In this document: piece by piece, positions 9,930 through 38,422 of the stretch | How positions within the stretch are numbered: position 1 is the first letter of the stretch | How the letters are laid out: each line of letters begins with the position of its first letter | Assembly: GCA_048886185.1 (NCBI GenBank) | Contig: JBHLKY010000001.1 | Coordinates: 130,436 to 194,435 of the forward strand | Origin: Candidatus Hermodarchaeota archaeon | Lineage (GTDB): Archaea; Asgardarchaeota; Heimdallarchaeia; Hodarchaeales; Hodarchaeaceae | Direction of reading: 5' to 3' | DNA length: 64,000 nt | Notes under the pieces: model-generated | What the model was told of the DNA's origin: nothing | Databases searched by the model: none | The model's input: the letters and a program-made list of their open reading frames with translations, nothing else | Program-made: the position numbers and the translations under genes

Positions 9930-12900
9930 TTGAATCTGAAAAAAGAGCTAAGGAACTTGAAGAATTCACACCTATTGAACCAATATATCATGAAAATTTA
10001 ATTCGGAATTTGGTTCGATTTGCATCTTTGATAGTAATTGGACTTCTAGTAGGACAACCTGCACAAAACTATCTTCCAGAAATTTATCCAACCATATTAC
10101 ATCAGATGTTGGTCTTTACTCTTTTGATAGTTTTTCTCGTTGGGCTATTCTTTACATTTTCGCAGTTACGTTGGTTTAATGAAAAAAGAAACAAGTCAAC
10201 CAATTTAGGAGGGACTATGGGTTTATTTGGACTATTTCTAACACTCATTTGTAGTGTACTTTCATTGCTTACTGTTTCATCAGCAGTTCTTATCCCTCTA
10301 CTTGGTATAGGACTGTTTTTAACATTCTTAGGGTTCTTTATAGAGACAACTCGCATAGATGAACCATTGGTATATTGGTTCAGAATGAATCTGGAGGTTA
10401 TTATACGCTATTCGATAACGGGAACTGGAGCCTTTTTGATCAACTGGAGTGTATTAATGACAATTTTGCTCTTCTTGGGATATTCGGGTATATTACCACC
10501 TTTCTATGTCTGGCCTGGAGATTCAATTGGAGGATTATTATTAGGGAGTATTGGTTTGGTTCTTGTCTGGGGTTCTTGGTATCATAGAATCACTCAAACA
10601 CTCTGGAAATATCGGATTGAAATCATTAGAACAATCGAGTTAAGTATCAGTCAGGGTCTAATCCTCATAGCACTAATAGGTCCATTCTTAAATCCGGACT
10701 TTCTTCTATACAGCTCCATTTTAGGCATCGCAGGATTAGCAGTAATATATCTAGACCTATACATATTTAAAAAGAAGGTTTTTAGTAATTTTTCCAGCGG
10801 ATTTATATCCTCTAGTCAGGTTTATGCCTCTATCATTGGTCTAATCTTCATTCTTTATGGACTAATCTTGATTCAGCAGCCTAATTGGCGATATTTCACG
10901 ATCTATCTTTATGTAATGGGATGCTTGCTGCTCTACAGAGTCTGGTTTGATAAAACCAATTACACAATAAATCGTTCTGCTCAAATCTTCGTTTGGTTTT
11001 TCCGAACTCATTATAGAGAGGTTATTACCTCTTTTTGCTTTGTCTCTATGGCTTTAGGATCTTTTTTATTTGGATTCACAAGATTGTTTTTAAGAATTAA
11101 TGATTTTTTTGATCCTGTACCTTTAGGGTTATTTCTAGTTGGTTACGCAATTGGACTAGTGGTTTGGTATATTCCAAGTCGTCATACATACTATCGAGGT
11201 ATGACAACGTCGTTAAATTTCTATTTGTTGTTATGGGGAATTTTCCTTTTTATTTTCCTCTTGCAGATAGATTCTAATGATATGATACCTTATGTGATTT
11301 CAACTACAATGTTTGTTATGGGGATGAGTGTAAACGTATGGCTTTGGAAAAGAGAAATATACAATTCAACTAAAAATACACTTATCACAATAAAAAACAC
11401 AATTTTTCAAACAATTCATGTTGTTGCCCAGTTCTTCAAAACATATTACCGTGAATTATTAACTATTGGAATTCTAAGCCTTATAACATATGGACTTGTT
11501 GTAACGTGGAGTACAGTCATTCACCCTCCCTATTGGCCATTCTTGTTTTTGATAACTGGTTATGCTATGCTTTTAGCCATCTGGCGCTTTCCTAACCGTC
11601 ATGACTATTTTCGTGGAGTGACAACAACTCTTAGTACCGTAATGATCCTTTTTGGCTTAGTATTAGTATTTTTCCAGGATTATCAATCTATCATTTGGCT
11701 TTCTGGTGGAATAATCATTATTGGTGTTGTAGTCAATGGAGCAGCGTGGCAAACGGAACTTAAACTGCTATTAATTCAAACTGCTACTGCTATCAAGAAC
11801 GTAATTGTCCGAACTGGCGTAACATTGAGAAATTTCTTTATCACTGTTAAAAATGCATTTATCCAAACTATTCATGCTCTTATTCACTTTATCGATAAAT
11901 CCCTCCATACTATCTGGGACTATCGCGTTCCTCTCATGAGGTCGATCATGACAACTATTGGTGCAATTCTAGCCATCACAGGTTTTTTATCATGGATTTT
12001 AAATTACGTATTCGACATAACTTGGATCTCTGGTCTTGAACCTTCGTTCTTGATATCTGGTATGATCCTTCTTTATATAGCTTGGTTCTATCAAGTTAAC
12101 CAGATTGTTAAGCAATCCGCTATTGCTATTCGTAATGGACTTGTCCACGTTTTTCATATTATCGCGGACTTCCTTGTGGCCGCTAAGAATACTGTCATAG
12201 TTGTTTCTCACTATATCTGGGATCACCGTGTTGACATTTTAAGAGCTCTCGTAACAATGATTGGTATTGTTTTGATCTCTACTGGGATTATTCCAGCAGA
12301 TCTAATTGATATTGACTCAAATATGAAATTAGTATTAGTAATTGGAGGTATAATTGTATTGTATTTATCCTGGCTCCAACCAGTAAACCATTTCCTCATA
12401 AAAACCTTGATTGCAATTAAAAACTTCTTTGTTGCTGTTAAGGACGCCACTATCCAGTTTATTCAAACAGCTATCCAATTTCCTGTAAATACATATCGAA
12501 AAATAGTTAATTTTCTCCAAAAATACTATATTGAAATAATTCGCTATTCTGCTACAACTATTGGGGGCTTCTCCATTTTCTTTGGGTTTTGGGGAACATT
12601 GAGGCAGGAACCGTTTGGGCTACTCATTCTTATTGCAGGATTGGCTATCCTTTATGCTGCTTGGTTCCATCATGTCAATCAATTTATTATTAGAACAATC
12701 CAGTCCATAAAGGATGCCATAATCCACGCTGCTCACGCTATTGCTAATTTTCTCCAGAATGTCAAAAATGCAATTATGCGAACTTTTTCCGCAATTGGAT
12801 CTTTCATGCAAAAAATAGCAATCCAACTGAACCAATTACTCCGTTCTATTGTAGATTTAATTATCCCAATATTTCTTCTGATTTTGTCAATCTCGGCGCT

Positions 12901-13252
12901 TTTCTATGGTATCATTCTAATTTTGTCTGGAGTATTTGATCCGACTGGAGCTCTTTTTAGTGATCTTCTTCTTCCAATTCCTCTTTTTGGAGATCTTTTG
13001 GATTTTCTTGCTCGATTGCTTCAGGGAGAAATCTATGAAGGGAATATCCTAGGTGTTTTTGCTAATCAAGACCCCATATTTCAAATTCTGGTTGGTATAG
13101 GCATTATTATATTCGGTGGTGTTGTATTTTTATTTGTGGCGCTAAAGAAGGAGAAAATGAGAATTAGATCCCTTTTGAAGGCTGATGAAACGTATTCTCA
13201 AGCAACACTTGATAAAGAAGAGGTTAATGACCTTGATGGTGGTAAAAAGTGA
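9926..13252 (+). CDS. giant (1108 aa) polytopic membrane protein with about 5 internal repeat modules
   Basis: A soluble charged N-terminus is followed by more than 20 predicted TM helices. There are recurrent amphipathic modules '..AIKNxxVxxxxxxxNFFxxVKNAxIQTIHxxxxF..' (about 5 copies) and repeated 'W(Y/R)(I/F)P(S/N)RH(T/D)Y(Y/F)RG(M/V)TT' segments. It is translationally coupled on both sides. Confidence 0.6.
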   Translation: MIESEKRAKELEEFTPIEPIYHENLIRNLVRFASLIVIGLLVGQPAQNYLPEIYPTILHQMLVFTLLIVFLVGLFFTFSQLRWFNEKRNKSTNLGGTMGLFGLFLTLICSVLSLLTVSSAVLIPLLGIGLFLTFLGFFIETTRIDEPLVYWFRMNLEVIIRYSITGTGAFLINWSVLMTILLFLGYSGILPPFYVWPGDSIGGLLLGSIGLVLVWGSWYHRITQTLWKYRIEIIRTIELSISQGLILIALIGPFLNPDFLLYSSILGIAGLAVIYLDLYIFKKKVFSNFSSGFISSSQVYASIIGLIFILYGLILIQQPNWRYFTIYLYVMGCLLLYRVWFDKTNYTINRSAQIFVWFFRTHYREVITSFCFVSMALGSFLFGFTRLFLRINDFFDPVPLGLFLVGYAIGLVVWYIPSRHTYYRGMTTSLNFYLLLWGIFLFIFLLQIDSNDMIPYVISTTMFVMGMSVNVWLWKREIYNSTKNTLITIKNTIFQTIHVVAQFFKTYYRELLTIGILSLITYGLVVTWSTVIHPPYWPFLFLITGYAMLLAIWRFPNRHDYFRGVTTTLSTVMILFGLVLVFFQDYQSIIWLSGGIIIIGVVVNGAAWQTELKLLLIQTATAIKNVIVRTGVTLRNFFITVKNAFIQTIHALIHFIDKSLHTIWDYRVPLMRSIMTTIGAILAITGFLSWILNYVFDITWISGLEPSFLISGMILLYIAWFYQVNQIVKQSAIAIRNGLVHVFHIIADFLVAAKNTVIVVSHYIWDHRVDILRALVTMIGIVLISTGIIPADLIDIDSNMKLVLVIGGIIVLYLSWLQPVNHFLIKTLIAIKNFFVAVKDATIQFIQTAIQFPVNTYRKIVNFLQKYYIEIIRYSATTIGGFSIFFGFWGTLRQEPFGLLILIAGLAILYAAWFHHVNQFIIRTIQSIKDAIIHAAHAIANFLQNVKNAIMRTFSAIGSFMQKIAIQLNQLLRSIVDLIIPIFLLILSISALFYGIILILSGVFDPTGALFSDLLLPIPLFGDLLDFLARLLQGEIYEGNILGVFANQDPIFQILVGIGIIIFGGVVFLFVALKKEKMRIRSLLKADETYSQATLDKEEVNDLDGGKK

Positions 13253-21190: not shown

Positions 21191-22699
21191 ATGAAATCCT
21201 CATTCAATAATAAAATGGATCTCAATGATGAAACCAAGGCATTTTTTAACTTTATTACGCATCCAACTAAATTAGAATCATTAATCATGTTAGAACAGCT
21301 TATTAAAGACACTAAGGATGAAAATCTAAGATGTTTCTGGAAAATACTTTCAGATAAAAATCTAGAATGTTTTAGACTTACATGTAAAGAAAATAATACA
21401 TCTAAGGAAGTATATTATATTGATCTTGAAACTCCGATATTATTTTATCCTGTATTCCAGAATCACATCTCTTTAAATATTGCCTCGAATTTTTTTTCTC
21501 TAGCGAGTAAAATTAAGTCAAATTTATTGAATTTCTATAGTCAAGAAGTCGAAAGTTCTTTTATTTTAATAAAAAAAGGTACAACTGAAAAATTGGTTGA
21601 TTCTTATACTTTTAAAGTAGAAGATCAGGATATCAAATTGTTACAAAGGTCTAATCTTTATAGATCTAGGAGAAAAGAAATATCCCAAAAGAATTTAGAC
21701 AATTTTCTTAAGAATAACGAGTCTATGTTAAATAATAGATTAAAAAAAGACGAAGGGGTTTATGCTTCGCTTGGAGATCATTTGTTATTTAAATCAGATA
21801 GTTTAAATCTTCAAAATGGCAAAAAGCGCTTTCCTGTTGGTCAACGAAACCCCAAAAATCGCTTGAATCTGTTAACGGGGAGAGAATGGATAAAATTTTC
21901 TAAAACATGGTTTATTCATCGTCCTCCATCACGAAAAGATGAAGAATTTTTACATCCTGCTAAATTCCCTGAGACACTTATTAGAAAGTTTATCACCTTT
22001 TTTACAAAACCAGGTGAATTAGTGCTAGATCCATTTCTTGGTACTGGAAGCGCGCTCATCGCTGCTAAACAGAGCAACAGGAGTGGAGTGGGAATTGAAC
22101 TCTCTCCTACTTACGCTAAAATTTCTAAAAACCGTTTAAAAGGAATAAATTCTCTATTATATCCCCCTTTATACCAAACTGATGAATCATGCTTTTGGAA
22201 GGTTATTTGTGGAGATTCTAGGAATTTAAATGACTACTGGGAGGATTTTAATTTACCAACTGTTGATTTTTGTATCACGAGCCCTCCTTATTGGAATCAG
22301 CTCCAACGAAATACTATTCGACAAAGGAAACGAAAACATGAGGGCTTAGATACACAATATAGTTATGATGATCCAAAGGATTTAGGGAACATTGATAATT
22401 ATAACAACTTCCTAAGTGAACAACAGAAAATATTTGGTAATGTTTACGAAATTCTACGACCTAATGGATACTTAGTCATAATCACAAATCATGTTTTTAC
22501 AGATGGACAGGTTTATCCCTTAGCTTATGACACAGTATCTAGTTTAATTAATGATAAAAAACATAATTGGATACAAAAAGATGAAAAAATATGGTTACAA
22601 GATGATAAGTCCTTGGTGGCATTAGGGGTAAATTATGCTTGGGTTGGAAATAGGTGCCACCAGTATTGTCTTATTCTAAGAAAAGAAGTATCAAACTAG
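21191..22699 (+). CDS. DNA methyltransferase (N4-C/N6-A, SPPY type) with a 240-aa N-terminal domain of unknown function
   Basis: 'HPAKFPETLIRKFITFFTKPGELVLDPFLGTGSALIAA' (AdoMet motif I region) precedes 'ITSPPYWN' (motif IV) by about 80 aa. This is a permuted order relative to beta-class enzymes. No adjacent nuclease gene. Confidence 0.7.
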   Translation: MKSSFNNKMDLNDETKAFFNFITHPTKLESLIMLEQLIKDTKDENLRCFWKILSDKNLECFRLTCKENNTSKEVYYIDLETPILFYPVFQNHISLNIASNFFSLASKIKSNLLNFYSQEVESSFILIKKGTTEKLVDSYTFKVEDQDIKLLQRSNLYRSRRKEISQKNLDNFLKNNESMLNNRLKKDEGVYASLGDHLLFKSDSLNLQNGKKRFPVGQRNPKNRLNLLTGREWIKFSKTWFIHRPPSRKDEEFLHPAKFPETLIRKFITFFTKPGELVLDPFLGTGSALIAAKQSNRSGVGIELSPTYAKISKNRLKGINSLLYPPLYQTDESCFWKVICGDSRNLNDYWEDFNLPTVDFCITSPPYWNQLQRNTIRQRKRKHEGLDTQYSYDDPKDLGNIDNYNNFLSEQQKIFGNVYEILRPNGYLVIITNHVFTDGQVYPLAYDTVSSLINDKKHNWIQKDEKIWLQDDKSLVALGVNYAWVGNRCHQYCLILRKEVSN

Positions 22700-23002: not shown

Positions 23003-23596
23003 TTACAGTAGTTTTTCATAAACGATAATTGGGAAAGTACTCTCTGGAGGATGTTTTTGAGTCAATTGAGAGAAGTTTTTCGATTCTATAATACCCATAA
23101 GGGATATTGGTGTTATTTCATAAGGTAAATCTATTGCATATTTATCAAAAAAGTCAGTAGTTAATAGGACTTCATAAAAACGATGAATTTCCTGAAAAAG
23201 GAGTTTTTCCAGCCATAATTTTATTCCAATGTCATCACGAACCCAAATTTCTAACCGATGGATTGCATAATTTTCTGAAATCAATTTGTATGCTTTTTCA
23301 ATTAATCTTGTTGCTATTTTCTTTCTACGGTATTGGGGATGTACCCCAACGACTGAGATCATACCCCCACGCTCATTATTATTAAAACAAAATTGTCCTG
23401 GTTCTTGTTCAATCTCTATATCTAAAATACCAACAATTTTTTCTTTATAAACTCCGATTAATTCAATACTTGGAGTTTCGTATCTAGGTTTCACTTTAAC
23501 TAATTCATCATAATAAATTGAATTATAATAGGCAAAATGATGACAGTTTATCCAGTCGTCTTCATCTGAAGGATTATAGTGACGGATTTTTAGCAT
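23003..23596 (-). CDS. GNAT-family N-acetyltransferase
   Basis: 'QYRRKKIATRLIEKAYKL' is the acetyl-CoA binding motif A. Confidence 0.55.
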   Translation of the reverse strand: MLKIRHYNPSDEDDWINCHHFAYYNSIYYDELVKVKPRYETPSIELIGVYKEKIVGILDIEIEQEPGQFCFNNNERGGMISVVGVHPQYRRKKIATRLIEKAYKLISENYAIHRLEIWVRDDIGIKLWLEKLLFQEIHRFYEVLLTTDFFDKYAIDLPYEITPISLMGIIESKNFSQLTQKHPPESTFPIIVYEKLL

Positions 23597-23647: not shown

Positions 23648-25777
23648 TTATCCTTCATTCCTTTTCTTTATTGGTGTTTCAATTAGTGATAACATTTCTC
23701 TTAACAACTCAGTAATTTCATCATGAGCTCCAATAATAAACTTCATACTACCCACTAATTCGTGCCCTCCCCCTTCTATTCCTGCTTTAGGGAGCTTTTT
23801 TGAACAATTTGAAACCAATTTGGGGAAATCTAATTGTACATTTTGAGAGCGGAAAATAGCAAAATCAGGGCCTAAGCCTATAGTTACAAGAGGAGATTCT
23901 AGATCTTTTTTTGCTAGATGATCGAAAAGAGAACCTGTTATTTTTCCTGGAGGTGGGTAATCGAATCTACTAGCATATTTCTCGACATCTAATATTGCTA
24001 AATGAATTCCATTCACTAACTTCTCTTCTTGAACATATTCTAGAGATATTTGTAACTGATTTTCAAGATGTTTACGAGCCTCATTTGATAAAAGCCTAAC
24101 ATAATTAATTTGTTTCTCCTGTTTTCCCTGTAGCCCTAAAAGATCGCTTAGGAGAAGACGTCCTGGTGAGAATTTTAAAAAATAGGCTTGGTAATCAACT
24201 GCTACAGCAATATCTTCTAGAAAATTCTCTGAATAATCCTTTTCTATAGCAATTGTTAAGTATTGGTTTAATTCGTCCCCTGATACACGATCACCTTTTC
24301 CTGCGATAGCTGGGAGATGGCTTATAGTGTCAGTGATATTAGGTTCAATTTGTCTGGCTAATTCACAACCTAACATTCCAGTACATATATTATAGTCGCC
24401 ACCAACAAAATAAACATTTAGATGAGTATCAATAGTATTTTGAATAATACTTGAGGGAAAATGATGATCAATGACTATAATTTCTATTTCATATGATTTT
24501 AGTAAATTGTATGAGAATAAACTTTCCTCACTGCTTCCTGAATCTAAAATTACAATCAAAGGTATTTTATCACCGAATCTATCCTGATCTGATAGCGCGA
24601 AATCAAGATCTCTAATTGCATCAATGGGATCATAAAAAGGAGGTTTATTAGGCGTTCTCTTAACTAGGTGCCTTAATTTTTCCTCATCTGTATCAAATAG
24701 TTGAAACCAAAGTTCTCGACATGCTGTCTCTAATGCAATTCCTGCAACAATTCCATCACAATCATTATGATGTCTAATTATCACGGGTTGTAATTCTAGT
24801 AATGCTCGGCGAATTCTTTTTGCTATACTAACAAATTTTTCTTGTAATAAGTCCAGTGTTTCAGATTTTATCATAAAATCGACTTTCGGGGGTTCACTTC
24901 GCGATTCAAGTAGATTTTCCATCTTTTGAGTAAATAAATTGGCATAAGTCTCATCAACGATGAAAATATCGGAAATCTCAATTTGTTCTGAATCTCTGTG
25001 ATGTGTGTATTCTCCCATAACTTCAACGATGTCTCCAACTTTGATTTCCTCCGCAAACTCAAGATGAAATGCTGCAGCTTCTATCACACCTGTTTCATCT
25101 AAGAGGGTAAGAATTTTCGGCCCCCGAGGAATTTGATGAATGTTCTCAATCCTTGCGTGAATTGAGAAAAAAGTCCCAACTTCACGGTCTGTATTGATTT
25201 TCTGAAAAGGAACAACGTCATGGACACGTTTCCTTAAAATTTTGGAAGTATCTCTAATAGGTACCTCCAGAAATTCTAGCTTCTCACCTTTCTTATTTTT
25301 AAGTTTAACAAATAAGGGATCCCCTTTATTTCCCTCAAACTGTTTATTTCTAATTAATCCCTCTACTTTTGGTGTCAGTTGAACAAAAAATCCAAAATCA
25401 GTATTTTTAACCATTGTGGCAGAGTAAACTTTCTTAAATTCTACTGTAGCTGATGAAGCAGGGGGAATCAACTCAAAAATAACTGGATTTTTTTCACACA
25501 TCTCACATAGCTGTATTCCAGCTGGTATATTTTTCTCACAAACAATACACTGATTTTTCTTTGTTCCTGTTCCTTTACATACAGGACAGGTCTTTTCAAT
25601 CGATTTTAATATCTGACCTGATCCTGAACAATCGGAACAGGCATTCTTCTTTGATGGTTTAGAACCTACTATAATTTTTGTTGAACCCATTCCATGACAG
25701 GTTGGGCATTTAATCTTGCGTTCACTAGAGATTTTTCCCGTTCCAGAACATTTGGGGCACTTTGAAAGTGAAGACAT
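23648..25777 (-). CDS. RecJ-like DHH/DHHA1 phosphoesterase with N-terminal DnaJ-type zinc finger and OB folds
   Basis: Four perfect CxxCxGxG repeats (CPKCSGTG, CPTCHGMG, CSDCSGSG, CPVCKGTG) plus an extra CxxC...CxxC ribbon; two OB/S1-like segments; DHH motifs 'HHNDCDGIVAG' and 'IVIDHHFP'; DHHA1 'GGGHELVG'. Confidence 0.65.
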   Translation of the reverse strand: MSSLSKCPKCSGTGKISSERKIKCPTCHGMGSTKIIVGSKPSKKNACSDCSGSGQILKSIEKTCPVCKGTGTKKNQCIVCEKNIPAGIQLCEMCEKNPVIFELIPPASSATVEFKKVYSATMVKNTDFGFFVQLTPKVEGLIRNKQFEGNKGDPLFVKLKNKKGEKLEFLEVPIRDTSKILRKRVHDVVPFQKINTDREVGTFFSIHARIENIHQIPRGPKILTLLDETGVIEAAAFHLEFAEEIKVGDIVEVMGEYTHHRDSEQIEISDIFIVDETYANLFTQKMENLLESRSEPPKVDFMIKSETLDLLQEKFVSIAKRIRRALLELQPVIIRHHNDCDGIVAGIALETACRELWFQLFDTDEEKLRHLVKRTPNKPPFYDPIDAIRDLDFALSDQDRFGDKIPLIVILDSGSSEESLFSYNLLKSYEIEIIVIDHHFPSSIIQNTIDTHLNVYFVGGDYNICTGMLGCELARQIEPNITDTISHLPAIAGKGDRVSGDELNQYLTIAIEKDYSENFLEDIAVAVDYQAYFLKFSPGRLLLSDLLGLQGKQEKQINYVRLLSNEARKHLENQLQISLEYVQEEKLVNGIHLAILDVEKYASRFDYPPPGKITGSLFDHLAKKDLESPLVTIGLGPDFAIFRSQNVQLDFPKLVSNCSKKLPKAGIEGGGHELVGSMKFIIGAHDEITELLREMLSLIETPIKKRNEG

Positions 25778-26066: not shown

Positions 26067-27683
26067 GTGAATGATGAACCCTCGATGAGGGAAGAAGTAA
26101 TTATCTTTTCTGACAGCCATATCTCAAAATTTACTGGTCTTTTTAACAAAAAAGCATTTACTACTGGCGTAAAACTCATTCAAGGTCTTATAAAGGCAAA
26201 TCCTAAGGCTTATCTTTTGCATCTTGGGGATATTACCGATTCAGGTACTTATGAAGATTTTGTTTTTGCTAAAAGCCTACTTGATGAAAATTTTTCCAAT
26301 ACAAACAATTTTTATACTTTAACTGGAAATCATGATATGCGTAACATCGGGGATAAACTTTGGGGAGACTTCTTTGGTGAACGGCAATTCCTCATTGACA
26401 CTACAAAAAACGGAGGAAATATGGTTATCCTTGGTATTGATAGCTCTGAACCAGACGAAAATATAGGTAGAATAGGTGATCGAGGTCTTGAAGCAATTCA
26501 TGAACTTCAAAGTTATAGTGATGACATTGTAAAAGTACTTTGTTTTCATCATCATTTATTACCAATTCCAAACACAGGAAGGGAAAGATCAATGATCTTG
26601 GACGCAGGTGATGTCATGCAAGTCATTTGGAAAGCAGGAGTAGATGTGATTATTACAGCCCATAGGCACTATCCAAATATCTTTTCACTTTCGAATGGAA
26701 TTAGGAGTTGCTTACTTGTTAATTGTGGAACTTTTAGTAGTTTTAAAACCCGTGGAAAAGCCGGACATACTTTCGTGGAACTAAGGTTTGAAAATGAAAG
26801 ATTGGATGTTAATATTTATGGGATAGAATCATATTCAAAATATAAAAAACCTGTTAAAGAAACCATTTCTATATTGAAGGGCGAACTTAAACCTCAAACG
26901 GGCTATTTCGTTCCTGGAGACAAAATCTTAAGTAAGATTTGTCAATTCTCGGATACTCACTTCAGCCCAGGAAATCATTTTCTTTCTGAAGTTTATGATC
27001 TTGGTATTAAGATGATGATCCGTGAGGAACCAAATATACTTATTCATTGTGGAGATTTGACAAATGATGCTTATCCTGAGGATTTTGCCGTTGCTAAAAT
27101 AAAGCTAAGAGAGTTACGTGATCTTAATATCCCTTACTTAATTGTCCCAGGTTCAAGGGATTTACAACCATTTGGCCGTGAAATGTTTCTTCAACAGGTT
27201 GGTCCTTTAGATCCTGTATACGAAGATCCAAGTATTCGTATTCTAGGAATTAATACTGGACCTGATGCCTCAGGTCACGTTGGACGTAGTCGATTGAAGA
27301 TGATTGAGTATGAGTATAAGACTTATGGTTCATATAAATTCTTTTTTGTTGTTATGCACCATAGCGTACTACCAGTCCCACGTGCTCGTTTTAAGCGAGC
27401 AGTTACAGACGCAGGTGACGTAATAGATTTTGTTACTTGTCATAAAGTACCTCTTGTTTTATCAGGACTTGATCATTATGCTACAACAATGCAAGTGAAC
27501 GAAACGGTATTTGTAAACGCTGGGACATTCTCGAGCAAGAAAATTCGCTCTAAAAGAATGAACACCTTTAATGTTATTACTATTTATGAAAGTGGAGTAA
27601 TACATGTTGAAGAAATTGAAATTCATAGTAGTACTCGTCATCTTTTAGGATTATATAGAGTGCCCATTACCTCATCGAGATAA
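26067..27683 (+). CDS. tandem calcineurin-like metallophosphoesterase
   Basis: Two copies of GD...GNHD...HHH-type motifs ('LHLGDITDSG','TGNHDM','CFHHHLLP' and 'IHCGDLTNDAY','MHHSVLP'). Confidence 0.6.
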   Translation: MNDEPSMREEVIIFSDSHISKFTGLFNKKAFTTGVKLIQGLIKANPKAYLLHLGDITDSGTYEDFVFAKSLLDENFSNTNNFYTLTGNHDMRNIGDKLWGDFFGERQFLIDTTKNGGNMVILGIDSSEPDENIGRIGDRGLEAIHELQSYSDDIVKVLCFHHHLLPIPNTGRERSMILDAGDVMQVIWKAGVDVIITAHRHYPNIFSLSNGIRSCLLVNCGTFSSFKTRGKAGHTFVELRFENERLDVNIYGIESYSKYKKPVKETISILKGELKPQTGYFVPGDKILSKICQFSDTHFSPGNHFLSEVYDLGIKMMIREEPNILIHCGDLTNDAYPEDFAVAKIKLRELRDLNIPYLIVPGSRDLQPFGREMFLQQVGPLDPVYEDPSIRILGINTGPDASGHVGRSRLKMIEYEYKTYGSYKFFFVVMHHSVLPVPRARFKRAVTDAGDVIDFVTCHKVPLVLSGLDHYATTMQVNETVFVNAGTFSSKKIRSKRMNTFNVITIYESGVIHVEEIEIHSSTRHLLGLYRVPITSSR

Positions 27684-29986: not shown

Positions 29987-32287
29987 TTGAGAGATTCAAA
30001 GTGCTATACTGAAGAGGAAATTTTAGCAGCTTTAACAAATGCTGTTGATGAGGTTGAAGTCTACACTAGGAAAATTGGCTTTGAAAAGTTTGAACAACCC
30101 CTTGGGTTCTTTTTTGCTCGGGTTTTGGATAATAAAATTACTCGATCTGAGAAAAGAGGAAAAGAACTTAAAACAGCAATTATAAGAGGTGCTGCGTTCA
30201 TTGTAGTAATTCAAATTCTGATATATACTGTGTTATTAAAAGAGGATTCTAAAAGCAGTTTAATTAATACAATACATGATTCTAAACATCTACAATCTTA
30301 TTTTGATGAAATTGAAAACGAAAAGAATTTTGGAGCTATCTTTAATGCTAGGATTGTTGAATTACTTCCTAAAGAATCAGCTGTGACTCTAAATCACGTT
30401 TTTCAATCATTTATCTCTTTTAATAAGTCGCAGTTCACTTCTGATATTCTTGGGAAAATTTTCCATGGATTAATCCCCTTTGAGCTGAGGAAATTTCTTG
30501 CTGCATATTATACCTCAAACGTTGTTGGAGGATTTCTATCATATTTAGCAATAAAAAACGACCAAGTTAAAATCATGGATCCAGCTTGTGGTTCTGGGAC
30601 TCTATTAGTGAGCGCTTATAAGCGAATCATAGAGATCAATAGAAATCTGGATCATAATCAAATTTTACGGAATATCTATGGAGTTGATGTTTCAGCATTT
30701 GCAGCTCAGCTTGCTGCAATTAATCTTGCGATTCAAAAACCTACTGATTCCTGGAACACTTGTAATATTGCCATTCTTGACTTTTTTAGATTAGAAATCG
30801 GAGATAAGGTAGTAGGTTTTAAAGTCCCCAAATTTGATGTTTTTATTGGAAATCCCCCATTTACTCGTGGTGATCGATTAGATAGTGAGTATAAGGACTT
30901 CTTACAAAATCATCTTCTTCATAAAGGAATTTCCTTTGATTATAATAAAAAATATTTGGGTTTATATGCATATTTTCTTCTAGATTCTTTAAGATTCTTG
31001 AAAGCGGAAGGAATCCTTGCTTTTATTCTTCCTCTTTCATTAATTAACTCTTTCACAATGAAACCTGTTCTGAAGTTTTTGATGTCAAAATTTCTCTTTA
31101 TTTACATTATTACATCAGAAGCTCAAATTACTTTTTCAGAGCAGTGCTCATTTAAAGAGATTCTCTTGATTGCCCAAAAAGGGAGAAAGAAGAGTTTTGG
31201 AACTAAATTCGTCACATTAAAAAAGGAATTAACAGATACTAATTATCGAAAAATAGCTGAAACAATAGAAAAGACTACGAAAAATTATGAAGACACAAAT
31301 ATACGAATTAGAACTATTTCAACAAAGACTCTGAAAGAAACTCTAAAAATGAACTGGATTGTATATTTTTACAATAGTAAATTCATCACCATTTTTGATC
31401 AGATAAGACGGTCCGATACGATTTCTCTAGTAAACGAAATAGTTGAAAATCCTCGGTATGATGTGGATCGGGGACTCCGTGCTGGAATTTCTGATTTCTT
31501 TTATCTCCCCAATAAATTCTGGAAAATTGTTGATACATCGAATAATGGGATTAAAATAAAGAATATTAGAGACAGTTCTATTCTAAATCTGTCTTCTAAA
31601 TATCTTGCACCTGTGTTAAGAAAATCTTCTCACTGTAGATGTGTTATTCCAGAATCTTCTGACTATATTGTCGTAATTCCTGATAAAAATGAAAAGGAAA
31701 AAGATGTTGATAATTATATCAAGTGGGCTGTTCAGAAGTTCCAAAAAACAGGATTTGAATCACTAACATTCAGGCATATCAGTCAAAAACGCAAAATTGC
31801 TAGAGTAGCAATCACTCATAAGCTTAGTCTTATAAGTAGTAAGATTATCACTTATTACTCCCCAAAGCCCATTGTTTTAACTGATAATTTTATCTTCATT
31901 AGAACTTTTAATAAAGAGAACGACAAAATTCTAGCTGCTTACTTGAATAGCTCAATATTTCTCTTAACTTATCTTATTCTACGTCGAGAGAAAAGTGGTG
32001 CTCTTGGCCAAATATTTGGTACTGATGTGAGGAATTTCTTTTGTTTGGATCCCCGAAAGGTGAGTTATTCTGACCGATTAGAGCTTATTAAGTTATTTGA
32101 TCATTTTATTAAGGAATCAAGCTTTTTTCCCTCTTTTCGTGAACAGATTAACAAAGCGAAAGAGGAGAGGGATAACATTAGATTTCTACTGGATGAAAAG
32201 ATCTGTGAGACACTTGGAATCAAAGATATTCCACTGTTCTTGAAACAACTTTATGAAACATTAATTGAGGAATTGAAGAAGTTTTAA
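29987..32287 (+). CDS. gamma-class N6-adenine DNA methyltransferase (Eco57I/TaqI-like), TTG start
   Basis: 'LAAYYTSNVVGGFL', motif I 'MDPACGSGTLLVSA', motif IV 'FIGNPPFTRGD', and a roughly 450-aa C-terminal target-recognition region. The first in-frame ATG lies inside motif I, so the start must be non-ATG. Confidence 0.75.
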   Translation: MRDSKCYTEEEILAALTNAVDEVEVYTRKIGFEKFEQPLGFFFARVLDNKITRSEKRGKELKTAIIRGAAFIVVIQILIYTVLLKEDSKSSLINTIHDSKHLQSYFDEIENEKNFGAIFNARIVELLPKESAVTLNHVFQSFISFNKSQFTSDILGKIFHGLIPFELRKFLAAYYTSNVVGGFLSYLAIKNDQVKIMDPACGSGTLLVSAYKRIIEINRNLDHNQILRNIYGVDVSAFAAQLAAINLAIQKPTDSWNTCNIAILDFFRLEIGDKVVGFKVPKFDVFIGNPPFTRGDRLDSEYKDFLQNHLLHKGISFDYNKKYLGLYAYFLLDSLRFLKAEGILAFILPLSLINSFTMKPVLKFLMSKFLFIYIITSEAQITFSEQCSFKEILLIAQKGRKKSFGTKFVTLKKELTDTNYRKIAETIEKTTKNYEDTNIRIRTISTKTLKETLKMNWIVYFYNSKFITIFDQIRRSDTISLVNEIVENPRYDVDRGLRAGISDFFYLPNKFWKIVDTSNNGIKIKNIRDSSILNLSSKYLAPVLRKSSHCRCVIPESSDYIVVIPDKNEKEKDVDNYIKWAVQKFQKTGFESLTFRHISQKRKIARVAITHKLSLISSKIITYYSPKPIVLTDNFIFIRTFNKENDKILAAYLNSSIFLLTYLILRREKSGALGQIFGTDVRNFFCLDPRKVSYSDRLELIKLFDHFIKESSFFPSFREQINKAKEERDNIRFLLDEKICETLGIKDIPLFLKQLYETLIEELKKF

Positions 32288-32322: not shown

Positions 32323-34443
32323 GTGACAATAGAAGAAAGGTTTCCCATTACTATTATTCAACAACTGGCAAAAATAGAGTCTCAGCGACGGCAATTTTAC
32401 CGACCGATATATTCTATCCATAAATCCTGGGCCAGAAGACCAGGGACAACAATACGTGCAATAGGTCTTTCTCATTTCTATCAAGATACTCTCTTTAATT
32501 CTAATCATATAGAAGAAGGAGGATTTTACCAAAATCATTATTTCCAAGGGAAAATTGCTCTCGATCCCTTCTGTGGTGGAGGAACGAGTATAGTTGAGCT
32601 TCATCGTCTTGGAATAAAAACAATTGGGATTGATGTAAATCCAATAGCTTGGTTCACTACAAAAAAGGAATTGGATTCATTTAATGAAGCCACTTTTAAC
32701 CAAGAAGTTAAAAAAATCTTTCAAAGCGTTGGCCAACGAATTAAATCTTATTATAAAACAATATGTCCAAGCTGTCACTATTCTGATGCTGATATTATGT
32801 ATATATTTTGGGTAAGAACCATTCAATGTCCTTCGTGCAACTCCGAGGAAGATCTATTCAAGTATTATATTATTGGTAAGAAGCAACGGAAACATAAAGC
32901 AACAATGGTGATATGTCCTTCTTGTGATCATTTATTTTATACATGGAAGAAGGTTAAAGAAATATCATCTTGTCCAGAATGTCAACATGAGTTTATTCCG
33001 ATACAAGGGAATTGTCGCTTGAAAAAATTCACCTGTACTCATTGTCAGAAAGAATCTAGACTTGTTGAGATACTCCAACAACCTACAAATTCTTTTTCTG
33101 CAAGACAAATAGCAATAGAATTCTTTTGTCCCGAATGTCGAACACGTGATTATAAACCAGTAAATAAAGAAGATAGAAATCTTTTTACACAAGTACAAGA
33201 AGAATTCATGATAAAAAAGGATGAACTCTTATATCCACATGAATTATTACCAATTGAAGGGGATAATATATCAAACCTTAGAAATTATGGTTTTCAACGA
33301 TTTTCAGATCTGTTCAATGAAAGACAGCTACTAAGTTTGAGTCTCCTCATACAAGCAATATCAAAAGTTGCAGATCAGAATATTAGAGAATTTCTCTTGT
33401 CTGCATTTTCTAGTTGTTTAGAATTTCATACTGTAATCTGTCCTTATAATTATACAATGAAACAGATTGTAAATGTGTTTAACTATCAATCTTTTCTTGT
33501 ACCAACCATGTATGTAGAAAATAATGTTTGGGGGACGAAAAAAGGGAATGGAACTTTCATTACTTACCTCGAGAGGATAAAAAAAGCCAAAAAATATTGC
33601 AGATCACCTTTTGAAATAGCTTTTCAGAATAACCAGATTATACGAATCTCTGTACCAGGAGATAATATCGAAGCCAAGTCCGTTAAGACCTTTCAGGAAC
33701 TTCAAGCAAGTTCTAGAGCTGAAACTTTACTTATTAATGATTCCTCTGAAAACCTTCAGAGATTGGGTATTCCTAAGGCTTCTGTCGACATAATAGTGAC
33801 TGATCCTCCTTATTTTGACTATATTCAGTACTCTGAATTGGCTAATTTTTTCTATGTCTGGTTGAGAATAGTTTTGAGACCTTTATACTCAGAATTTCAT
33901 TCTAATTTAATCAATACTGAATATGAAATTGGTAGATTAAAACAAGAGAACCATTTCCTTGAGGGAATAACTAAAGTATTTCAAGAATGTTATAGGGTTT
34001 TAAAGCCAGAAGGTCCGATGATTTTTACATTTCATCATTCTAGTGAAACAGCATGGGCAATGATATTAGAGGCTTTAGCCAAAAGCCAATTCCTAATAAC
34101 TGCTACATTTCCTGTTCGAAGTGAATTTGGTGCTCGTCCTGTTAAAGGACAAAACTTTGATTTTATCATTATATGCAGAAAATATTCAAAAGTAAACCTC
34201 GCCATGAATCATATAAGTCGAACAGTATTAGAGTCAGAGATAAAAAGAAGTTTAGATGATTTTTCAGTTGTTTCTCCTCGAGAACCTGATCTTACTCCGT
34301 GGGGGGTTGCATTTGCGTCTATTCTCCCTATGATATCAAAATTCTCTACATTAAATCAATCTGTAGATATTGAAGAAATCATATTACACACCTTTACCCT
34401 CCTCAAAAACCTTAAAATTCAATATAATTCTAAAACACCTTAA
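32323..34443 (+). CDS. adenine-specific DNA methyltransferase with internal multi-CxxC zinc-ribbon module (COG1743/DUF1156-like)
   Basis: N-terminal 'YRPIYSIHKSWARRPG', motif I 'LDPFCGGGTSIVELHRLG', six CxxC pairs (CPSC..CPSC, CPSC..CPEC, CTHC..CPEC), motif IV 'IVTDPPYFDYIQYSELANFFYVWLR', and 'FTFHH'. Confidence 0.7.
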   Translation: MTIEERFPITIIQQLAKIESQRRQFYRPIYSIHKSWARRPGTTIRAIGLSHFYQDTLFNSNHIEEGGFYQNHYFQGKIALDPFCGGGTSIVELHRLGIKTIGIDVNPIAWFTTKKELDSFNEATFNQEVKKIFQSVGQRIKSYYKTICPSCHYSDADIMYIFWVRTIQCPSCNSEEDLFKYYIIGKKQRKHKATMVICPSCDHLFYTWKKVKEISSCPECQHEFIPIQGNCRLKKFTCTHCQKESRLVEILQQPTNSFSARQIAIEFFCPECRTRDYKPVNKEDRNLFTQVQEEFMIKKDELLYPHELLPIEGDNISNLRNYGFQRFSDLFNERQLLSLSLLIQAISKVADQNIREFLLSAFSSCLEFHTVICPYNYTMKQIVNVFNYQSFLVPTMYVENNVWGTKKGNGTFITYLERIKKAKKYCRSPFEIAFQNNQIIRISVPGDNIEAKSVKTFQELQASSRAETLLINDSSENLQRLGIPKASVDIIVTDPPYFDYIQYSELANFFYVWLRIVLRPLYSEFHSNLINTEYEIGRLKQENHFLEGITKVFQECYRVLKPEGPMIFTFHHSSETAWAMILEALAKSQFLITATFPVRSEFGARPVKGQNFDFIIICRKYSKVNLAMNHISRTVLESEIKRSLDDFSVVSPREPDLTPWGVAFASILPMISKFSTLNQSVDIEEIILHTFTLLKNLKIQYNSKTP

Positions 34444-36244: not shown

Positions 36245-38422
36245 ATGAAACAGAAGATTCAAAGATCAGAAAAAGTAATCGAGAATTATTTTCCATTCTC
36301 AAAGGTCAATGAAATTGCCTACAGAGAGAGTAATGCGAAGAGGTACTATCGTCCTGTTCTAACTCTGCATAAGTGGTTTGCTCGCCGATTAGGTTCTGTT
36401 TTTAGATCTATTCTCATCTATTCTTCACTTTCCTCAGTAAAAAACGATGTTAAAGCTGTCAATGCTTCGTACGAAGACAATATCCTGGCATTGGAACATG
36501 ATTTTTGGAATCTGTATTTACAAGAACATAATTTTGAAGATATTATTGTTATAGATCCTTTTATGGGAGGGGGGACAACAATTATTGAAGCCATTCGTTT
36601 AGGCTTTGGTGGGATTATAGGTGGTGATTTGAATCCTGTCGCTTGGTTTGCAGTAAAAAAAGAGCTAGAAGAAGTTAATATTAATAGTTTAAAGGTAGAA
36701 TTTGAGAAATTATCATCCAAACTTAAACATGAGCTTTCTATATATTATAAAACACAATGTGGTCATTGTTCGAATCATGCGGATGTAATGTACTTTTTCT
36801 GGGTAAAAGAGATTCAATGTGAGCATTGTTCAACAACTACTCCCCTTTTCCGAAGTTATTTGTTTGCTTATGATCGTAAGGATCCTTCATCAGGTCATTT
36901 TATTTGTCCTAAATGTCAAACCATTTTTCACGGAATTTTTAAAGAGGATCTTTACTGTCCTGAATGTAGCTGGATCTTTGATCCATTTTCTTTTGTTGTT
37001 AAACGCGGAAAAATTTTTTGTCCCAGCTGTGAACATACAGCTAAAATTGTAGATGTTTGTGCAAAACAGGGAAAGTCCCAGGAAAGATTATATGCTATAG
37101 AATATTATTGTTCTTATTGTAATACACGTGATTACAAAAGAGCTGATATAAATGACCTTGACCTCTATCAACAAGCATCTCATGAATTTAAGATGATTCA
37201 GAAGTTATTACCACTTCCTAACCAAGCTATCCCTATGGGAGCTAAAACCCAGGAATTATTAAATCATCAAATTCTCTTTTTTACCGATATGTTCAATATG
37301 CGTCAACTACTTTCTTTAGGAAAATTATTGAGGGAAATTCTGGAAATTCAAGATCAAAATATAAAGGAATTCTTTCTTATAACATTTTCAACAGCTTTGG
37401 AATATAATAATCTTCTGTGTGAATATCATAGAAAGAACCATTACATCTACAATTTATTTCGAAAACATGCCTTTCCTGCCACATTGAACCCTGTTGAAAA
37501 TAATGTATTTGGTACAGCAAAATTCGGTACAGGAACTTTCAAAAACTTCTTTTCGAAGACCATTCGAATTAAACAATTTTGTAGGAATCCGTACGAATAC
37601 TATATTACTGAGGAAGGGAATACTAACCGCCAATCTATGAAACGTTCAATTAAAGGGAGAGTAGTGTCTTCATATTCCAAGCTCATGCAAGATCCTACAG
37701 AAAATATTTATCTCTATTGCCATTCTTCTGACCAAATTCAGGTTCCAGATAATAGTGTGAACTTAGTAGTAACAGATCCTCCCTATTACGATAATGTTCA
37801 GTATTCTGAGTTATCAGATTTTTATTACGTTTGGTTGAGATTAGGACTTAAGGATCATTATCCCTGGTTTAGTTCAACATTAACTCCCAAAAAAGAAGAG
37901 ATTGTAAAAAATATAAAAATTGGAAAAAAAAGTAGTGATTATCAACAGGGCTTAAAAGAAGTATTTTCAGAGATTTCCAGAGTCTTGAAAACTGATGGTT
38001 TGTTAATATTTTCATTTCATCACAAAGAATTACAGGCTTGGACTTCAATAATACAGAGTTTATTGGATATTAATTTCTACATCACAGCAGTTTATCCTGT
38101 GCGTGGTGAAATGGAGACCAGTACACAGATTCGAGGTAAAAAAAGTATTGAATTTGACGTCATCTTTGTCTGCAAGAAACGTTTGGGATATTCTCACAAA
38201 AACATGTGGGAAAGACTTCTTCCTAAGATTAAGAAGAGTATAAAGGACAAAATAACCCTTCTGAGTAATACTGGTGACTTTCTTTCAAAGGAAGATCAAT
38301 TTGTAGTTCAACTTGGTGTTGGATTAAAGTATTTCACAAAATACTATCCTAATATTACCTTTAATTCAAAATCTTTGGCTTTAAAGGAAGCTTTAGAAAA
38401 TCTCGCATCGCTCACTTATTGA
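36245..38422 (+). CDS. paralog of 32323-34443: Zn-ribbon adenine-specific DNA methyltransferase (COG1743/DUF1156-like)
   Basis: Colinear with 32323-34443: 'YRPVLTLHKWFARRLG', 'IDPFMGGGTTIIEAIRLG', six CxxC pairs, 'VVTDPPYYDNVQYSELSDFYYVWLR', 'FSFHH'. Confidence 0.7.
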   Translation: MKQKIQRSEKVIENYFPFSKVNEIAYRESNAKRYYRPVLTLHKWFARRLGSVFRSILIYSSLSSVKNDVKAVNASYEDNILALEHDFWNLYLQEHNFEDIIVIDPFMGGGTTIIEAIRLGFGGIIGGDLNPVAWFAVKKELEEVNINSLKVEFEKLSSKLKHELSIYYKTQCGHCSNHADVMYFFWVKEIQCEHCSTTTPLFRSYLFAYDRKDPSSGHFICPKCQTIFHGIFKEDLYCPECSWIFDPFSFVVKRGKIFCPSCEHTAKIVDVCAKQGKSQERLYAIEYYCSYCNTRDYKRADINDLDLYQQASHEFKMIQKLLPLPNQAIPMGAKTQELLNHQILFFTDMFNMRQLLSLGKLLREILEIQDQNIKEFFLITFSTALEYNNLLCEYHRKNHYIYNLFRKHAFPATLNPVENNVFGTAKFGTGTFKNFFSKTIRIKQFCRNPYEYYITEEGNTNRQSMKRSIKGRVVSSYSKLMQDPTENIYLYCHSSDQIQVPDNSVNLVVTDPPYYDNVQYSELSDFYYVWLRLGLKDHYPWFSSTLTPKKEEIVKNIKIGKKSSDYQQGLKEVFSEISRVLKTDGLLIFSFHHKELQAWTSIIQSLLDINFYITAVYPVRGEMETSTQIRGKKSIEFDVIFVCKKRLGYSHKNMWERLLPKIKKSIKDKITLLSNTGDFLSKEDQFVVQLGVGLKYFTKYYPNITFNSKSLALKEALENLASLTY

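Follow-up and report, generated by a model that had tools for sequence, protein, structure and literature searches.

A full-length HAN-family nuclease with an N-terminal DnaJ-type zinc finger in a Hodarchaeales (Asgard) genome

Results

The gene and its domains

The window, that is, the whole stretch of 64,000 nucleotides that was analysed, carries an open reading frame of 709 amino acids with an ATG start (Table 1), and a deposited protein from a Promethearchaeota MAG was found to be 100% identical to its product in a protein search. The neighbouring genes encode a tandem metallophosphoesterase, a GNAT protein and a DNA methylase, and no match was found in an Rfam scan of the window. The whole protein was modelled as an AlphaFold2 monomer with a mean pLDDT of 88 and a pTM of 0.78.

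Table 1. Features of the locus, with positions in the window and residues (aa) in the encoded protein.
Feature	Position	Strand	Evidence
Complete HAN-family gene, ZnF - Zn ribbon - S1 - OB - DHH - DHHA1	23648..25777	(-)	ORF list, NCBIfam, end-to-end alignment
DnaJ-type cysteine-rich domain, four CxxCxGxG repeats, aa 7-71	25565..25759	(-)	Pfam PF00684, profile match
Fifth zinc ribbon, CxxC-x10-CxxC, aa 77-94	25496..25549	(-)	conserved Cys
S1-like five-stranded barrel, aa ~110-172	25262..25450	(-)	Pfam (weak), 4nbq, model
OB fold, aa ~200-275	24953..25180	(-)	Pfam tRNA_anti-codon, model strands
DHH catalytic domain, motifs I-IV, aa ~327-500	24278..24799	(-)	Pfam DHH, PfuHAN alignment
DHHA1 domain, aa ~580-697, R643 and G669-G-G-H672	23687..24040	(-)	PfuHAN alignment, Foldseek

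The N-terminal zinc module

The strict pattern C..C.G.G started at residues 7, 24, 47 and 64 of the protein, giving spacings of 17, 23 and 17 residues, the corresponding spacings in E. coli DnaJ being 17, 22 and 14. When the whole window was translated in six frames (127,996 residues), the pattern turned up just six times, namely in these four places and twice in a UvrA gene, so the four repeats are not a product of chance. The sequence-only reading had taken them as a DnaJ cysteine-rich domain, and this proved right as opposed to a generic ribbon: Pfam DnaJ_CXXCXGXG (PF00684) matched with model positions 1-65 of 65 (E=3.7e-9, 37.2 bits vs. a gathering cutoff of 32.7), while a profile of the N-terminal region matched the cysteine-rich domains of E. 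coli DnaJ (1exk, E=3.9e-9) and Ydj1 (1nlt, E=2.7e-8). All eight cysteines of the repeats were invariant among 45 homologues, as were C77, C80, C91 and C94 of the fifth zinc ribbon, which that reading had also recognized. Moreover, C77, C80 and C91 were retained even in haloarchaeal homologues without the four repeats. By analogy with DnaJ, two Zn would be expected in the DnaJ-type domain, and the whole module would probably hold three, including one in the fifth ribbon. The module is also highly basic, with a net charge of +11 over the first 98 residues and a median of +10 in the zinc modules of 25 homologues.

The model of the isolated zinc domain (pLDDT 79.8) showed long strands at residues 15-23 and 55-63, which, lying between repeats 1-2 and 3-4, would resemble the DnaJ hairpin. 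The top Foldseek matches of this isolated domain were DnaJA2, anti-TRAP and DnaJ, all with E >= 0.11; since none was significant (best E=0.11), the identification of the module rests on sequence profiles and not on fold. Despite the shared repeats, the protein differs from DnaJ/Hsp40 proteins in lacking the J domain, the G/F region and the C-terminal substrate-binding domains and in being fused to nucleic-acid-binding and nuclease domains. In particular, the NCBIfam DnaJ equivalog models matched only residues 2-90, over about positions 138-253 of the models, with 14-35 bits against cutoffs of 338-619, and no Pfam match to the J domain was found in the 709 residues. A type I DnaJ/Hsp40 chaperone was therefore rejected.

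The S1, OB and DHH-DHHA1 domains

The two OB/S1-like folds suggested from the sequence were recovered in the AlphaFold2 model as two five-stranded barrels, at residues 117-171 (strands 117-126, 129-135, 138-142, 154-163 and 166-171) and 203-273 (strands 203-215, 221-226, 231-236, 250-260 and 263-273). The Pfam S1 match to the first (residues 116-190) was weak, with E=0.005 and 17.7 bits vs. a cutoff of 22, and the region matched the PNPase S1 domain 4nbq with E=4e-4. The second scored above the cutoff as a Pfam tRNA_anti-codon OB fold (residues 205-271, 30.6 bits vs. 27).

The Pfam search proposed earlier for the remaining domains was successful for DHH (residues 332-450, 35.1 bits vs. a cutoff of 28.1), as it had been for the DnaJ-type domain, but not for DHHA1, which had no Pfam match in the 709-residue protein. 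The complete DHH-DHHA1 unit that had been claimed is present all the same, as the DHHA1 region bears a GGGH motif (residues 669-672) and both aligned and superposed with the DHHA1 domain of PDB 5yh1. The motifs HHNDCDG (336-342), DHH (437-439) and GDR (495-497) were also present. The motif residues of the DHH domain were H337, D339, D341, D412, D437-H438-H439, R475 and D496; they aligned with H362, D364, D366, D436, H462, R507 and D528 of the Pyrococcus furiosus enzyme (PfuHAN) and were invariant or nearly so among the 45 homologues. Of the nine PfuHAN residues tested by mutagenesis, eight were identical here, with H362, D366, D436, H462, D528, R507, R676 and H709, all of them required for function in that work (Feng et al. 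2018, PMC6158738), corresponding to H337, D341, D412, H438, D496, R475, R643 and H672, and the sole change being R587 to K555. Judging from this alignment, the active site is intact.

Assignment to the HAN family

The best NCBIfam model was HAN_nuclease (NF053577), which aligned from residue 99 to 696 over model positions 1-601 of 612 with E=2e-162, compared with 5e-8 for RecJ_archaeal, 2e-6 for bacterial recJ and 3e-5 for RecJ_Meth. Its score of 541.8 bits lies under the NCBIfam equivalog cutoff of 840, which governs naming on the assumption of identical function and sets no structural criterion, so the protein need not be functionally equivalent to the Thermococcales enzyme. PDB 5yh1, the DHH domain of PfuHAN, was the top PDB match both by sequence (E=2.7e-97) and by fold (Foldseek E=1.3e-46, TM 0.93 on the target, rmsd 1.9 Å). 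Furthermore, BLASTP aligned the protein end to end with HAN of Pyrococcus sp. ST04 (residues 3-698 vs. 2-736, 35% identity), with the four CxxCxGxG repeats and the fifth ribbon all in register, the ST04 protein itself being 94% identical to PfuHAN across the crystallised DHH domain. The DnaJ-type finger, extra ribbon, S1, OB and DHH-DHHA1 domains follow the same order in the HAN proteins of P. furiosus (PF0399, 5yh1) and T. kodakarensis; apart from the change at K555, the protein differs in that Pyrococcus has 16 more residues in the loop joining repeats 2 and 3.

On the other hand, GAN, the archaeal RecJ/Cdc45 relative, and bacterial RecJ shared only the DHH-DHHA1 core, to which the structural similarity was limited (Foldseek E about 1e-14, identity of only 12-16%). 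GAN has 5'->3' polarity and a domain for interaction with CMG, with no N-terminal finger and no S1 or OB domain (PMC5717133). With RecJ_archaeal scoring 32.1 bits against a cutoff of 360, a GAN/Cdc45-like identity was rejected. The protein is thus an Asgard member of the HAN family (COG1107 / arCOG00429 / NF053577) with its defining architecture; membership is clear, while functional equivalence with the characterised enzymes is what we infer.

Phyletic distribution and gene neighbourhood

At least 514 stretches encoding relatives were found in a genome collection (one genome per species) by a scan for which haloarchaeal sequences and two divergent ones had been left out of the query alignment. 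The fusion with the DnaJ-type finger was encoded by nearly all of the best 80 loci, in answer to the earlier question of whether orthologues share it. The relatives in the scan came from Methanosarcinales, Methanobacteriales and Heimdall lineages, and copies from Thermococcales and Archaeoglobaceae were obtained by protein searches. The haloarchaeal homologues that were retrieved lacked both the DHH and GGGH motifs and carried a long acidic insert, resembling the published description of RecJ4.

The gene under study lies on a contig of 268 kb, and orthologues were found on complete Heimdall-lineage chromosomes of 3.16 Mb and 3.08 Mb. In a neighbour-joining tree, the Hodarchaeales copies formed a clade with 100% support that was nested in no euryarchaeal order; the deep nodes were weak (36% for Hodarchaeales plus Heimdallarchaeum), so that the tree does not choose between vertical descent and ancient transfer. 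The G+C content was uniform across the window. Two MAGs labelled 'Bathyarchaeia' and 'Nanoarchaeia' bore Heimdall-like and ANME-2-like HAN copies.

The order metallophosphoesterase-HAN-GNAT was conserved in all seven of the other loci of the Hodarchaeales clade that were compared (L004 and L006-L011). It was absent from the single annotated Heimdallarchaeum locus, and no tblastn match for it was found in the remaining Heimdall or euryarchaeal loci that were compared. Moreover, the neighbouring phosphoesterase is more like GpdQ-type phosphohydrolases than like enzymes of repair. The neighbourhood was rejected as a functional link, being conserved only within this clade and containing a GpdQ-like enzyme. 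No Hef-like gene was found in the 20 kb around the HAN gene or among the ten large open reading frames of the window that were scanned.

Discussion

The fusion of a DnaJ-type finger to a RecJ-like nuclease is not new. The sequence-only reading, which knew of no RecJ-family protein with such an N-terminal finger, was mistaken on this point, since the layout dates back to Makarova et al. 2012 and the protein, named Hef-associated nuclease (HAN), had its domains tested by Nagata et al. 2017 (PMC5717133) and Feng et al. 2018 (PMC6158738); it has been in COG/arCOG and the literature since 2012, with a crystal structure and biochemistry. That reading had named two grounds for giving up its proposal, namely that the repeats were only generic ribbons, which they are not, and that archaeal RecJ homologues widely carry the fusion and are already annotated with it, which was found. 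The published architecture comprises an N-terminal DnaJ-like zinc finger, two OB-type folds and DHH-DHHA1 (PMC3307487, PMC5717133, PMC6158738), and HAN is a Mn2+-dependent 3'->5' exonuclease on ssDNA and ssRNA whose activity is raised by the N-terminal domains, increasing with the length of the N-terminal region retained (PMC5717133, PMC6158738). The 3'->5' activity is established for PfuHAN, TkoHAN and HvoRecJ3/4, and further traits of the family are a homotrimer of the DHH/DHHA1 domain and a physical association with Hef by way of the disordered region of Hef.

Taken as a whole, the most convincing explanation, which we hold to be very probable, is that the protein is the Hodarchaeales orthologue of HAN, a 3'->5' exonuclease of ssDNA and ssRNA that would hold the strand with its N-terminal part and trim ends in fork repair. 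By homology, it would be Mn2+-dependent and act on single-stranded DNA and RNA, with catalysis taking place in the C-terminal DHH/DHHA1 cleft. The basic zinc module, the S1 barrel and the OB fold would most likely grip the single strand upstream of the 3' end, and this grip would most likely increase affinity and activity. In vivo, exposed 3' ends would most likely be trimmed when stalled or damaged replication forks are repaired, possibly with a Hef/XPF-type partner, although the neighbours of the gene do not suggest repair. The earlier suggestion of a Zn-dependent DNA-binding finger, taken as a module that binds nucleic acids, agrees with the published truncations. Its contribution is uncertain, because the PfuHAN truncations D4 and D5, in which only the finger was removed, were comparable to the full-length enzyme and Haloferax needed none of the N-terminal region for resistance to MMS (PMC6158738).

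A main role of this HAN family member in RNA turnover, as a 3'->5' exoribonuclease acting alone or in a complex like that of RecJ3/RecJ4 with aRNase J, seems unlikely, yet it deserves real weight and is not mutually exclusive with fork repair. The abundance of TkoHAN exceeds that of Hef 50-300 times, with its authors allowing a role in RNA (PMC5717133), S1 domains typically bind RNA and no Hef gene was found in the 20 kb around the HAN gene. Furthermore, RecJ3 (HVO_1018), the Haloferax volcanii orthologue and itself active as a 3'->5' exonuclease, has a preference for RNA over ssDNA, and both RecJ4 and aRNase J were recovered with it on purification. RecJ3 and RecJ4 share arCOG00429 and the S1, OB and DHH/DHHA1 domains with the protein studied here; unlike it, the haloarchaeal members lack the four CxxCxGxG repeats, keep a single ribbon and form the complex with aRNase J. 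That complex has been proposed for archaea without an exosome, which weighs against the same role here. Asgard archaea encode exosome components. In addition, neither an inactive RecJ4-like paralogue nor aRNase J was found in the scanned part of the window, and the deletion phenotypes reported so far concern survival of DNA damage.

Another proposal of the sequence-only reading, that the finger directs the nuclease to unfolded protein/DNA complexes, found no support, and a chaperone-like finger that would bind unfolded proteins or serve as a protein-protein or redox module is improbable. The DnaJ cysteine-rich domain contacts substrate polypeptides, the sequence match to it is significant, and DnaK co-purified in low abundance with Haloferax RecJ3, which has itself no finger; yet the protein has none of the other DnaJ parts, its zinc module is highly basic, and in published work the finger is credited with nucleic-acid binding, the site of Hef binding being the DHH domain and not the finger (PMC6158738). 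Even less credible, and largely refuted, is that the Asgard assignment is an artefact of a mis-binned euryarchaeal contig or of very recent horizontal transfer. The copies in 'Bathyarchaeia' and 'Nanoarchaeia' MAGs illustrate how bin labels can mislead, but the lengths of the contig and of the chromosomes with orthologues, the conserved synteny, the uniform G+C content and the position of the Hodarchaeales clade outside every euryarchaeal order all argue against it.

What remains as novelty for HAN in Hodarchaeales is taxonomic and mild, as the family has been called Euryarchaeota-specific (PMC3307487, PMC5717133, PMC6158738 and the Haloferax RecJ3/RecJ4 work) and tied to Euryarchaeota possessing Hef (PMC5717133); no relevant work on HAN or Hef in Asgard archaea was found in the literature. 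We tentatively suggest, with less than even confidence, that HAN is not Euryarchaeota-specific but old and vertically inherited in Heimdall lineages, including Hodarchaeales and two or more other clades labelled Heimdall. The record is corrected in that Hodarchaeales and other lineages labelled Heimdall have clear full-length orthologues with an intact active site, encoded on long contigs and on complete chromosomes. Since their scores do not reach the threshold for the HAN name, the NCBI labels go no further than 'zinc finger domain-containing protein' or 'DHH family phosphoesterase', which is a reason for retraining the family model. Moreover, the Heimdall copies offer a simple test of the proposed co-evolution of HAN and Hef. 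Heimdall lineages are the archaea placed closest to eukaryotes. If their genomes lack Hef, HAN would act alone or with another partner and the definition as 'Hef-associated' would be weakened; if they encode Hef, a relative of FANCM/XPF, a HAN-Hef fork-repair module may have existed in the archaeal ancestor of eukaryotes and been lost afterwards.

Domain layout and family assignment

The sequence-only reading had listed a DnaJ-type zinc finger, a fifth ribbon, two OB/S1-like folds and a DHH-DHHA1 phosphoesterase, and each of these elements was located by the open reading frame, Pfam, motif searches and the barrels of an AlphaFold2 model (see Table). The model, built on an alignment of 45 homologues, was confident (pLDDT 88, pTM 0.78) and showed the zinc module to be separated from the phosphoesterase by two barrels of five strands each. 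In aa 7-71, the CxxCxGxG motif occurs four times in its strict form (CPKCSGTG, CPTCHGMG, CSDCSGSG and CPVCKGTG). Since four of the six matches to this motif in the six-frame translation of the 64-kb window (127,996 residues) fell in this gene and the other two in the UvrA gene, the cluster was not due to chance.

Table. Features of the protein and of its surroundings (aa, residues of the 709-aa protein; otherwise window coordinates; HAN, Hef-associated nuclease; PfuHAN, Pyrococcus furiosus PF0399)
Feature	Position	Strand	Details
HAN-family ORF	23648..25777	-	709 aa, ATG start
DnaJ_CXXCXGXG	aa 7-71		Pfam, full model covered, 37.2 bits (curated cutoff 32.7)
Fifth ribbon	aa 77-94		CxxC-x10-CxxC
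S1	aa 116-190		Pfam, weak match
tRNA_anti-codon OB fold	aa 205-271		Pfam
DHH	aa 332-450		Pfam
GGGH	aa 669-672		DHHA1 signature
Metal ligands	D341, D412, H438, D496		PfuHAN D366, D436, H462, D528 (alignment)
Substrate binding	H337, R475, R643, H672		PfuHAN H362, R507, R676, H709 (alignment)
GNAT	23003-23596		downstream of HAN gene
Tandem metallophosphoesterase	26067-27683	+	538 aa, two calcineurin-like domains, divergent from HAN gene
C-type lectin domain protein	8613-9929	+	438 aa
ORF without Pfam match	9926-13252	+	1108 aa, start overlaps stop of lectin-domain gene; followed by a 394-aa ORF without match
DNA-methyltransferase-type genes (five)	21191-22699, 29987-32287, 32323-34443, 36245-38422, 47010-48962		three N6_N4_Mtase; one MmeI/Eco57I-like, 766 aa, type IIG appearance; one Eco57I/N6_Mtase
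UvrA, bacterial-type	52192-55089	-	965 aa; UvrA_inter, UvrA_DNA-bind, ABC_tran
ORF	55598-60196	+	1532 aa; sole Pfam match a marginal DUF4785 C-terminal domain

NCBIfam NF053577, 'Hef-associated nuclease' (E=2e-162), far outscored every other family model, with aa 99-696 aligned to its positions 1-601 of 612; archaeal and bacterial RecJ models reached only 5e-8 to 3e-5. The sole strong match among PDB sequences was 5yh1, the DHH domain of PfuHAN (E=2.7e-97), onto which the predicted structure was superposed with a TM of 0.93 and an rmsd of 1.9 Å over 440 columns; GAN, RecJ and Cdc45 ranked far below it in the fold comparison, with identities of 12-16%. Full-length Thermococcales HANs were retrieved with the 5yh1 sequence rebuilt from its alignment to the window protein. 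In particular, the 740-aa HAN of Pyrococcus sp. ST04, 94% identical to PfuHAN across the crystallised domain, aligned with residues 3 to 698 at 35% identity, with the four repeats, fifth ribbon, S1, OB, DHH and DHHA1 all in register. As this alignment was colinear and all but one of the residues required in PfuHAN were kept, the protein belongs to the HAN family over its full length, and its active site is intact.

The DnaJ-type finger within the family

The fusion of a DnaJ-type finger to a RecJ-like nuclease is not new. The family was named HAN by Nagata et al. 2017 (PMC5717133), and 'DnaJ-Zinc-finger' is stated in the abstract of Feng et al. 2018 (PMC6158738), where stepwise N-terminal truncations were made, the trimeric DHH domain was solved and Hef binding was mapped to it. 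Moreover, the fusion proved to be widespread. In a first protein search, nearly all full-length homologues, down to 32% identity, had three or four strict repeats and the fifth ribbon. At least 514 stretches encoding a relative were found in a collection of one genome per species; among the best 80 of them, about 70 of the 77 loci with a matching ORF recovered had three or four strict repeats, spanning Hodarchaeales, other Heimdall-labelled lineages, Methanoperedens, Methanothrix, Methanosarcina, ANME-2 and Methanobrevibacter. Thus, the domain reading of the sequence-only account stood, with Pfam, motifs and model behind it, but its view of the fusion as unprecedented was refuted by the criterion that this account had itself set, and the protein adds an uncharacterised member to a known family.

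The likeness of the zinc module to the DnaJ cysteine-rich domain (CRD) is statistically sound at the level of sequence, since the Pfam cutoff was passed and a profile of 25 N-terminal regions matched E. coli DnaJ CRD (1exk, 3.9e-9), Ydj1 (2.7e-8) and DnaJA2 (3.5e-8). The repeats were spaced by 17, 23 and 17 residues, and two long strands were predicted between repeats 1-2 and 3-4 (aa 15-23 and 55-63), a modelled placement that fits the DnaJ hairpin. However, the fold search with the isolated module gave no significant match (best DnaJA2, anti-TRAP and DnaJ, at E of at least 0.11), so that support for the DnaJ CRD fold falls short of demonstration. No other chaperone parts were found in the protein, in which DnaJ models matched the finger segment only. 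Furthermore, the module carried a net charge of +11 in 98 residues (homologue median +10), while the OB and DHH parts were acidic; this basic charge fits the published view that the module helps to bind nucleic acid. In published work, removal of the finger alone had a small effect, and Haloferax needed none of the N-terminal region for resistance to MMS (PMC6158738).

An exhaustive search of 50%-identity representatives returned 590 clusters, and 21 of the best 150 representatives had the finger. The remainder were shorter, starting from the S1 barrel (~620 aa) or the OB fold (~500 aa) or comprising only DHH/DHHA1 (~400 aa), and DHH and GGGH were kept in all shorter representatives (P0106-P0243). 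Fragmentary genes may account for some of them. With representatives both with and without finger, S1 and OB, the search shows the family to be modular. Haloarchaeal members of the family lacked the four repeats but kept the single ribbon; those retrieved as P0094-P0098 (Halobacteriales) also had a long acidic insert and had lost DHH and GGGH, which fits what has been described for RecJ4, an inactive scaffold, rather than for RecJ3. In a Heimdallarchaeum-like clade (homologues P0050-P0067; loci L015, L017-L020, L023 and L065), the fourth repeat was degenerate (CxxCxGKK), with the Cys pair kept and the second Gly lost.

Predicted activity and role

The residues required in PfuHAN were established by mutagenesis (Feng et al. 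2018, PMC6158738). The sole change among them was R587, replaced by K555, in a region variable across the family; the other mapped residues were invariant or nearly so among 45 homologues. The best-supported reading is that of a 3'->5' single-strand exonuclease, in which Mn2+ would be held in the DHH/DHHA1 cleft by D341, D412, H438 and D496, the 3'-terminal phosphates would be gripped by H337, R643 and H672, and roughly ten nucleotides upstream would be held by the OB, S1 and zinc modules. Its cellular role is probably 3'-end trimming at stalled or damaged forks, performed in Thermococcales with Hef (PMC5717133, PMC6158738). A rival role in RNA turnover, suggested by the Haloferax orthologue RecJ3, which has a preference for RNA and is part of a complex with RecJ4 and aRNase J, would be compatible with fork trimming.

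Genomic surroundings and distribution in Asgard archaea

The window comes from a Hodarchaeales (Asgard) MAG, and an identical protein (100%) was found on contig JBHLMD010000002.1 of assembly GCA_048938455.1. The metallophosphoesterase, whose nearest solved relatives were GpdQ-type phosphohydrolases, and GNAT flanked HAN in every other Hodarchaeales-clade locus examined, with HAN identities down to 58%; the metallophosphoesterase was more conserved than HAN (69-86% in other species' loci). Neither gene lay beside HAN in the one Heimdallarchaeum locus annotated, and tblastn of the remaining loci examined, both Heimdall and euryarchaeal, found neither. The arrangement was treated as lineage synteny, not as a functional unit. 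Two of the five methyltransferase-type genes were also kept beside HAN in a second Hodarchaeales-like genome. No Hef-like gene was found in the HAN flanks or among the large window ORFs scanned. In Candidatus Heimdallarchaeum endolithica (locus L005, 18851-21013), an XPD-type helicase (DEAD_2, HBB, Helicase_C_2) lay ~7 kb downstream of HAN, in this one genome only and probably by coincidence.

The family has been described as Euryarchaeota-specific (PMC3307487, PMC5717133, PMC6158738 and the Haloferax RecJ3 study), and a literature search for HAN in Asgard archaea found no report. Yet Heimdall-lineage archaea encode full-length orthologues on a contig of 268 kb and on complete chromosomes of 3.16 and 3.08 Mb. 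By neighbour joining, the copies from Hodarchaeales came out as one clade with 100% support; the Asgard sequences split into three groups and no group fell within a euryarchaeal order, but the deep nodes were weak. The HANs of two MAGs were placed at odds with their labels, one labelled Bathyarchaeia clustering tightly with Heimdall-labelled sequences (L016) and one labelled Nanoarchaeia clustering with ANME-2 (L034), which suggests mis-binning or mislabelling. The Asgard HANs thus modestly widen the taxonomic range of a known family and, as the distribution of HAN has been linked to that of Hef (PMC5717133), they offer a ready test of this proposed co-distribution.
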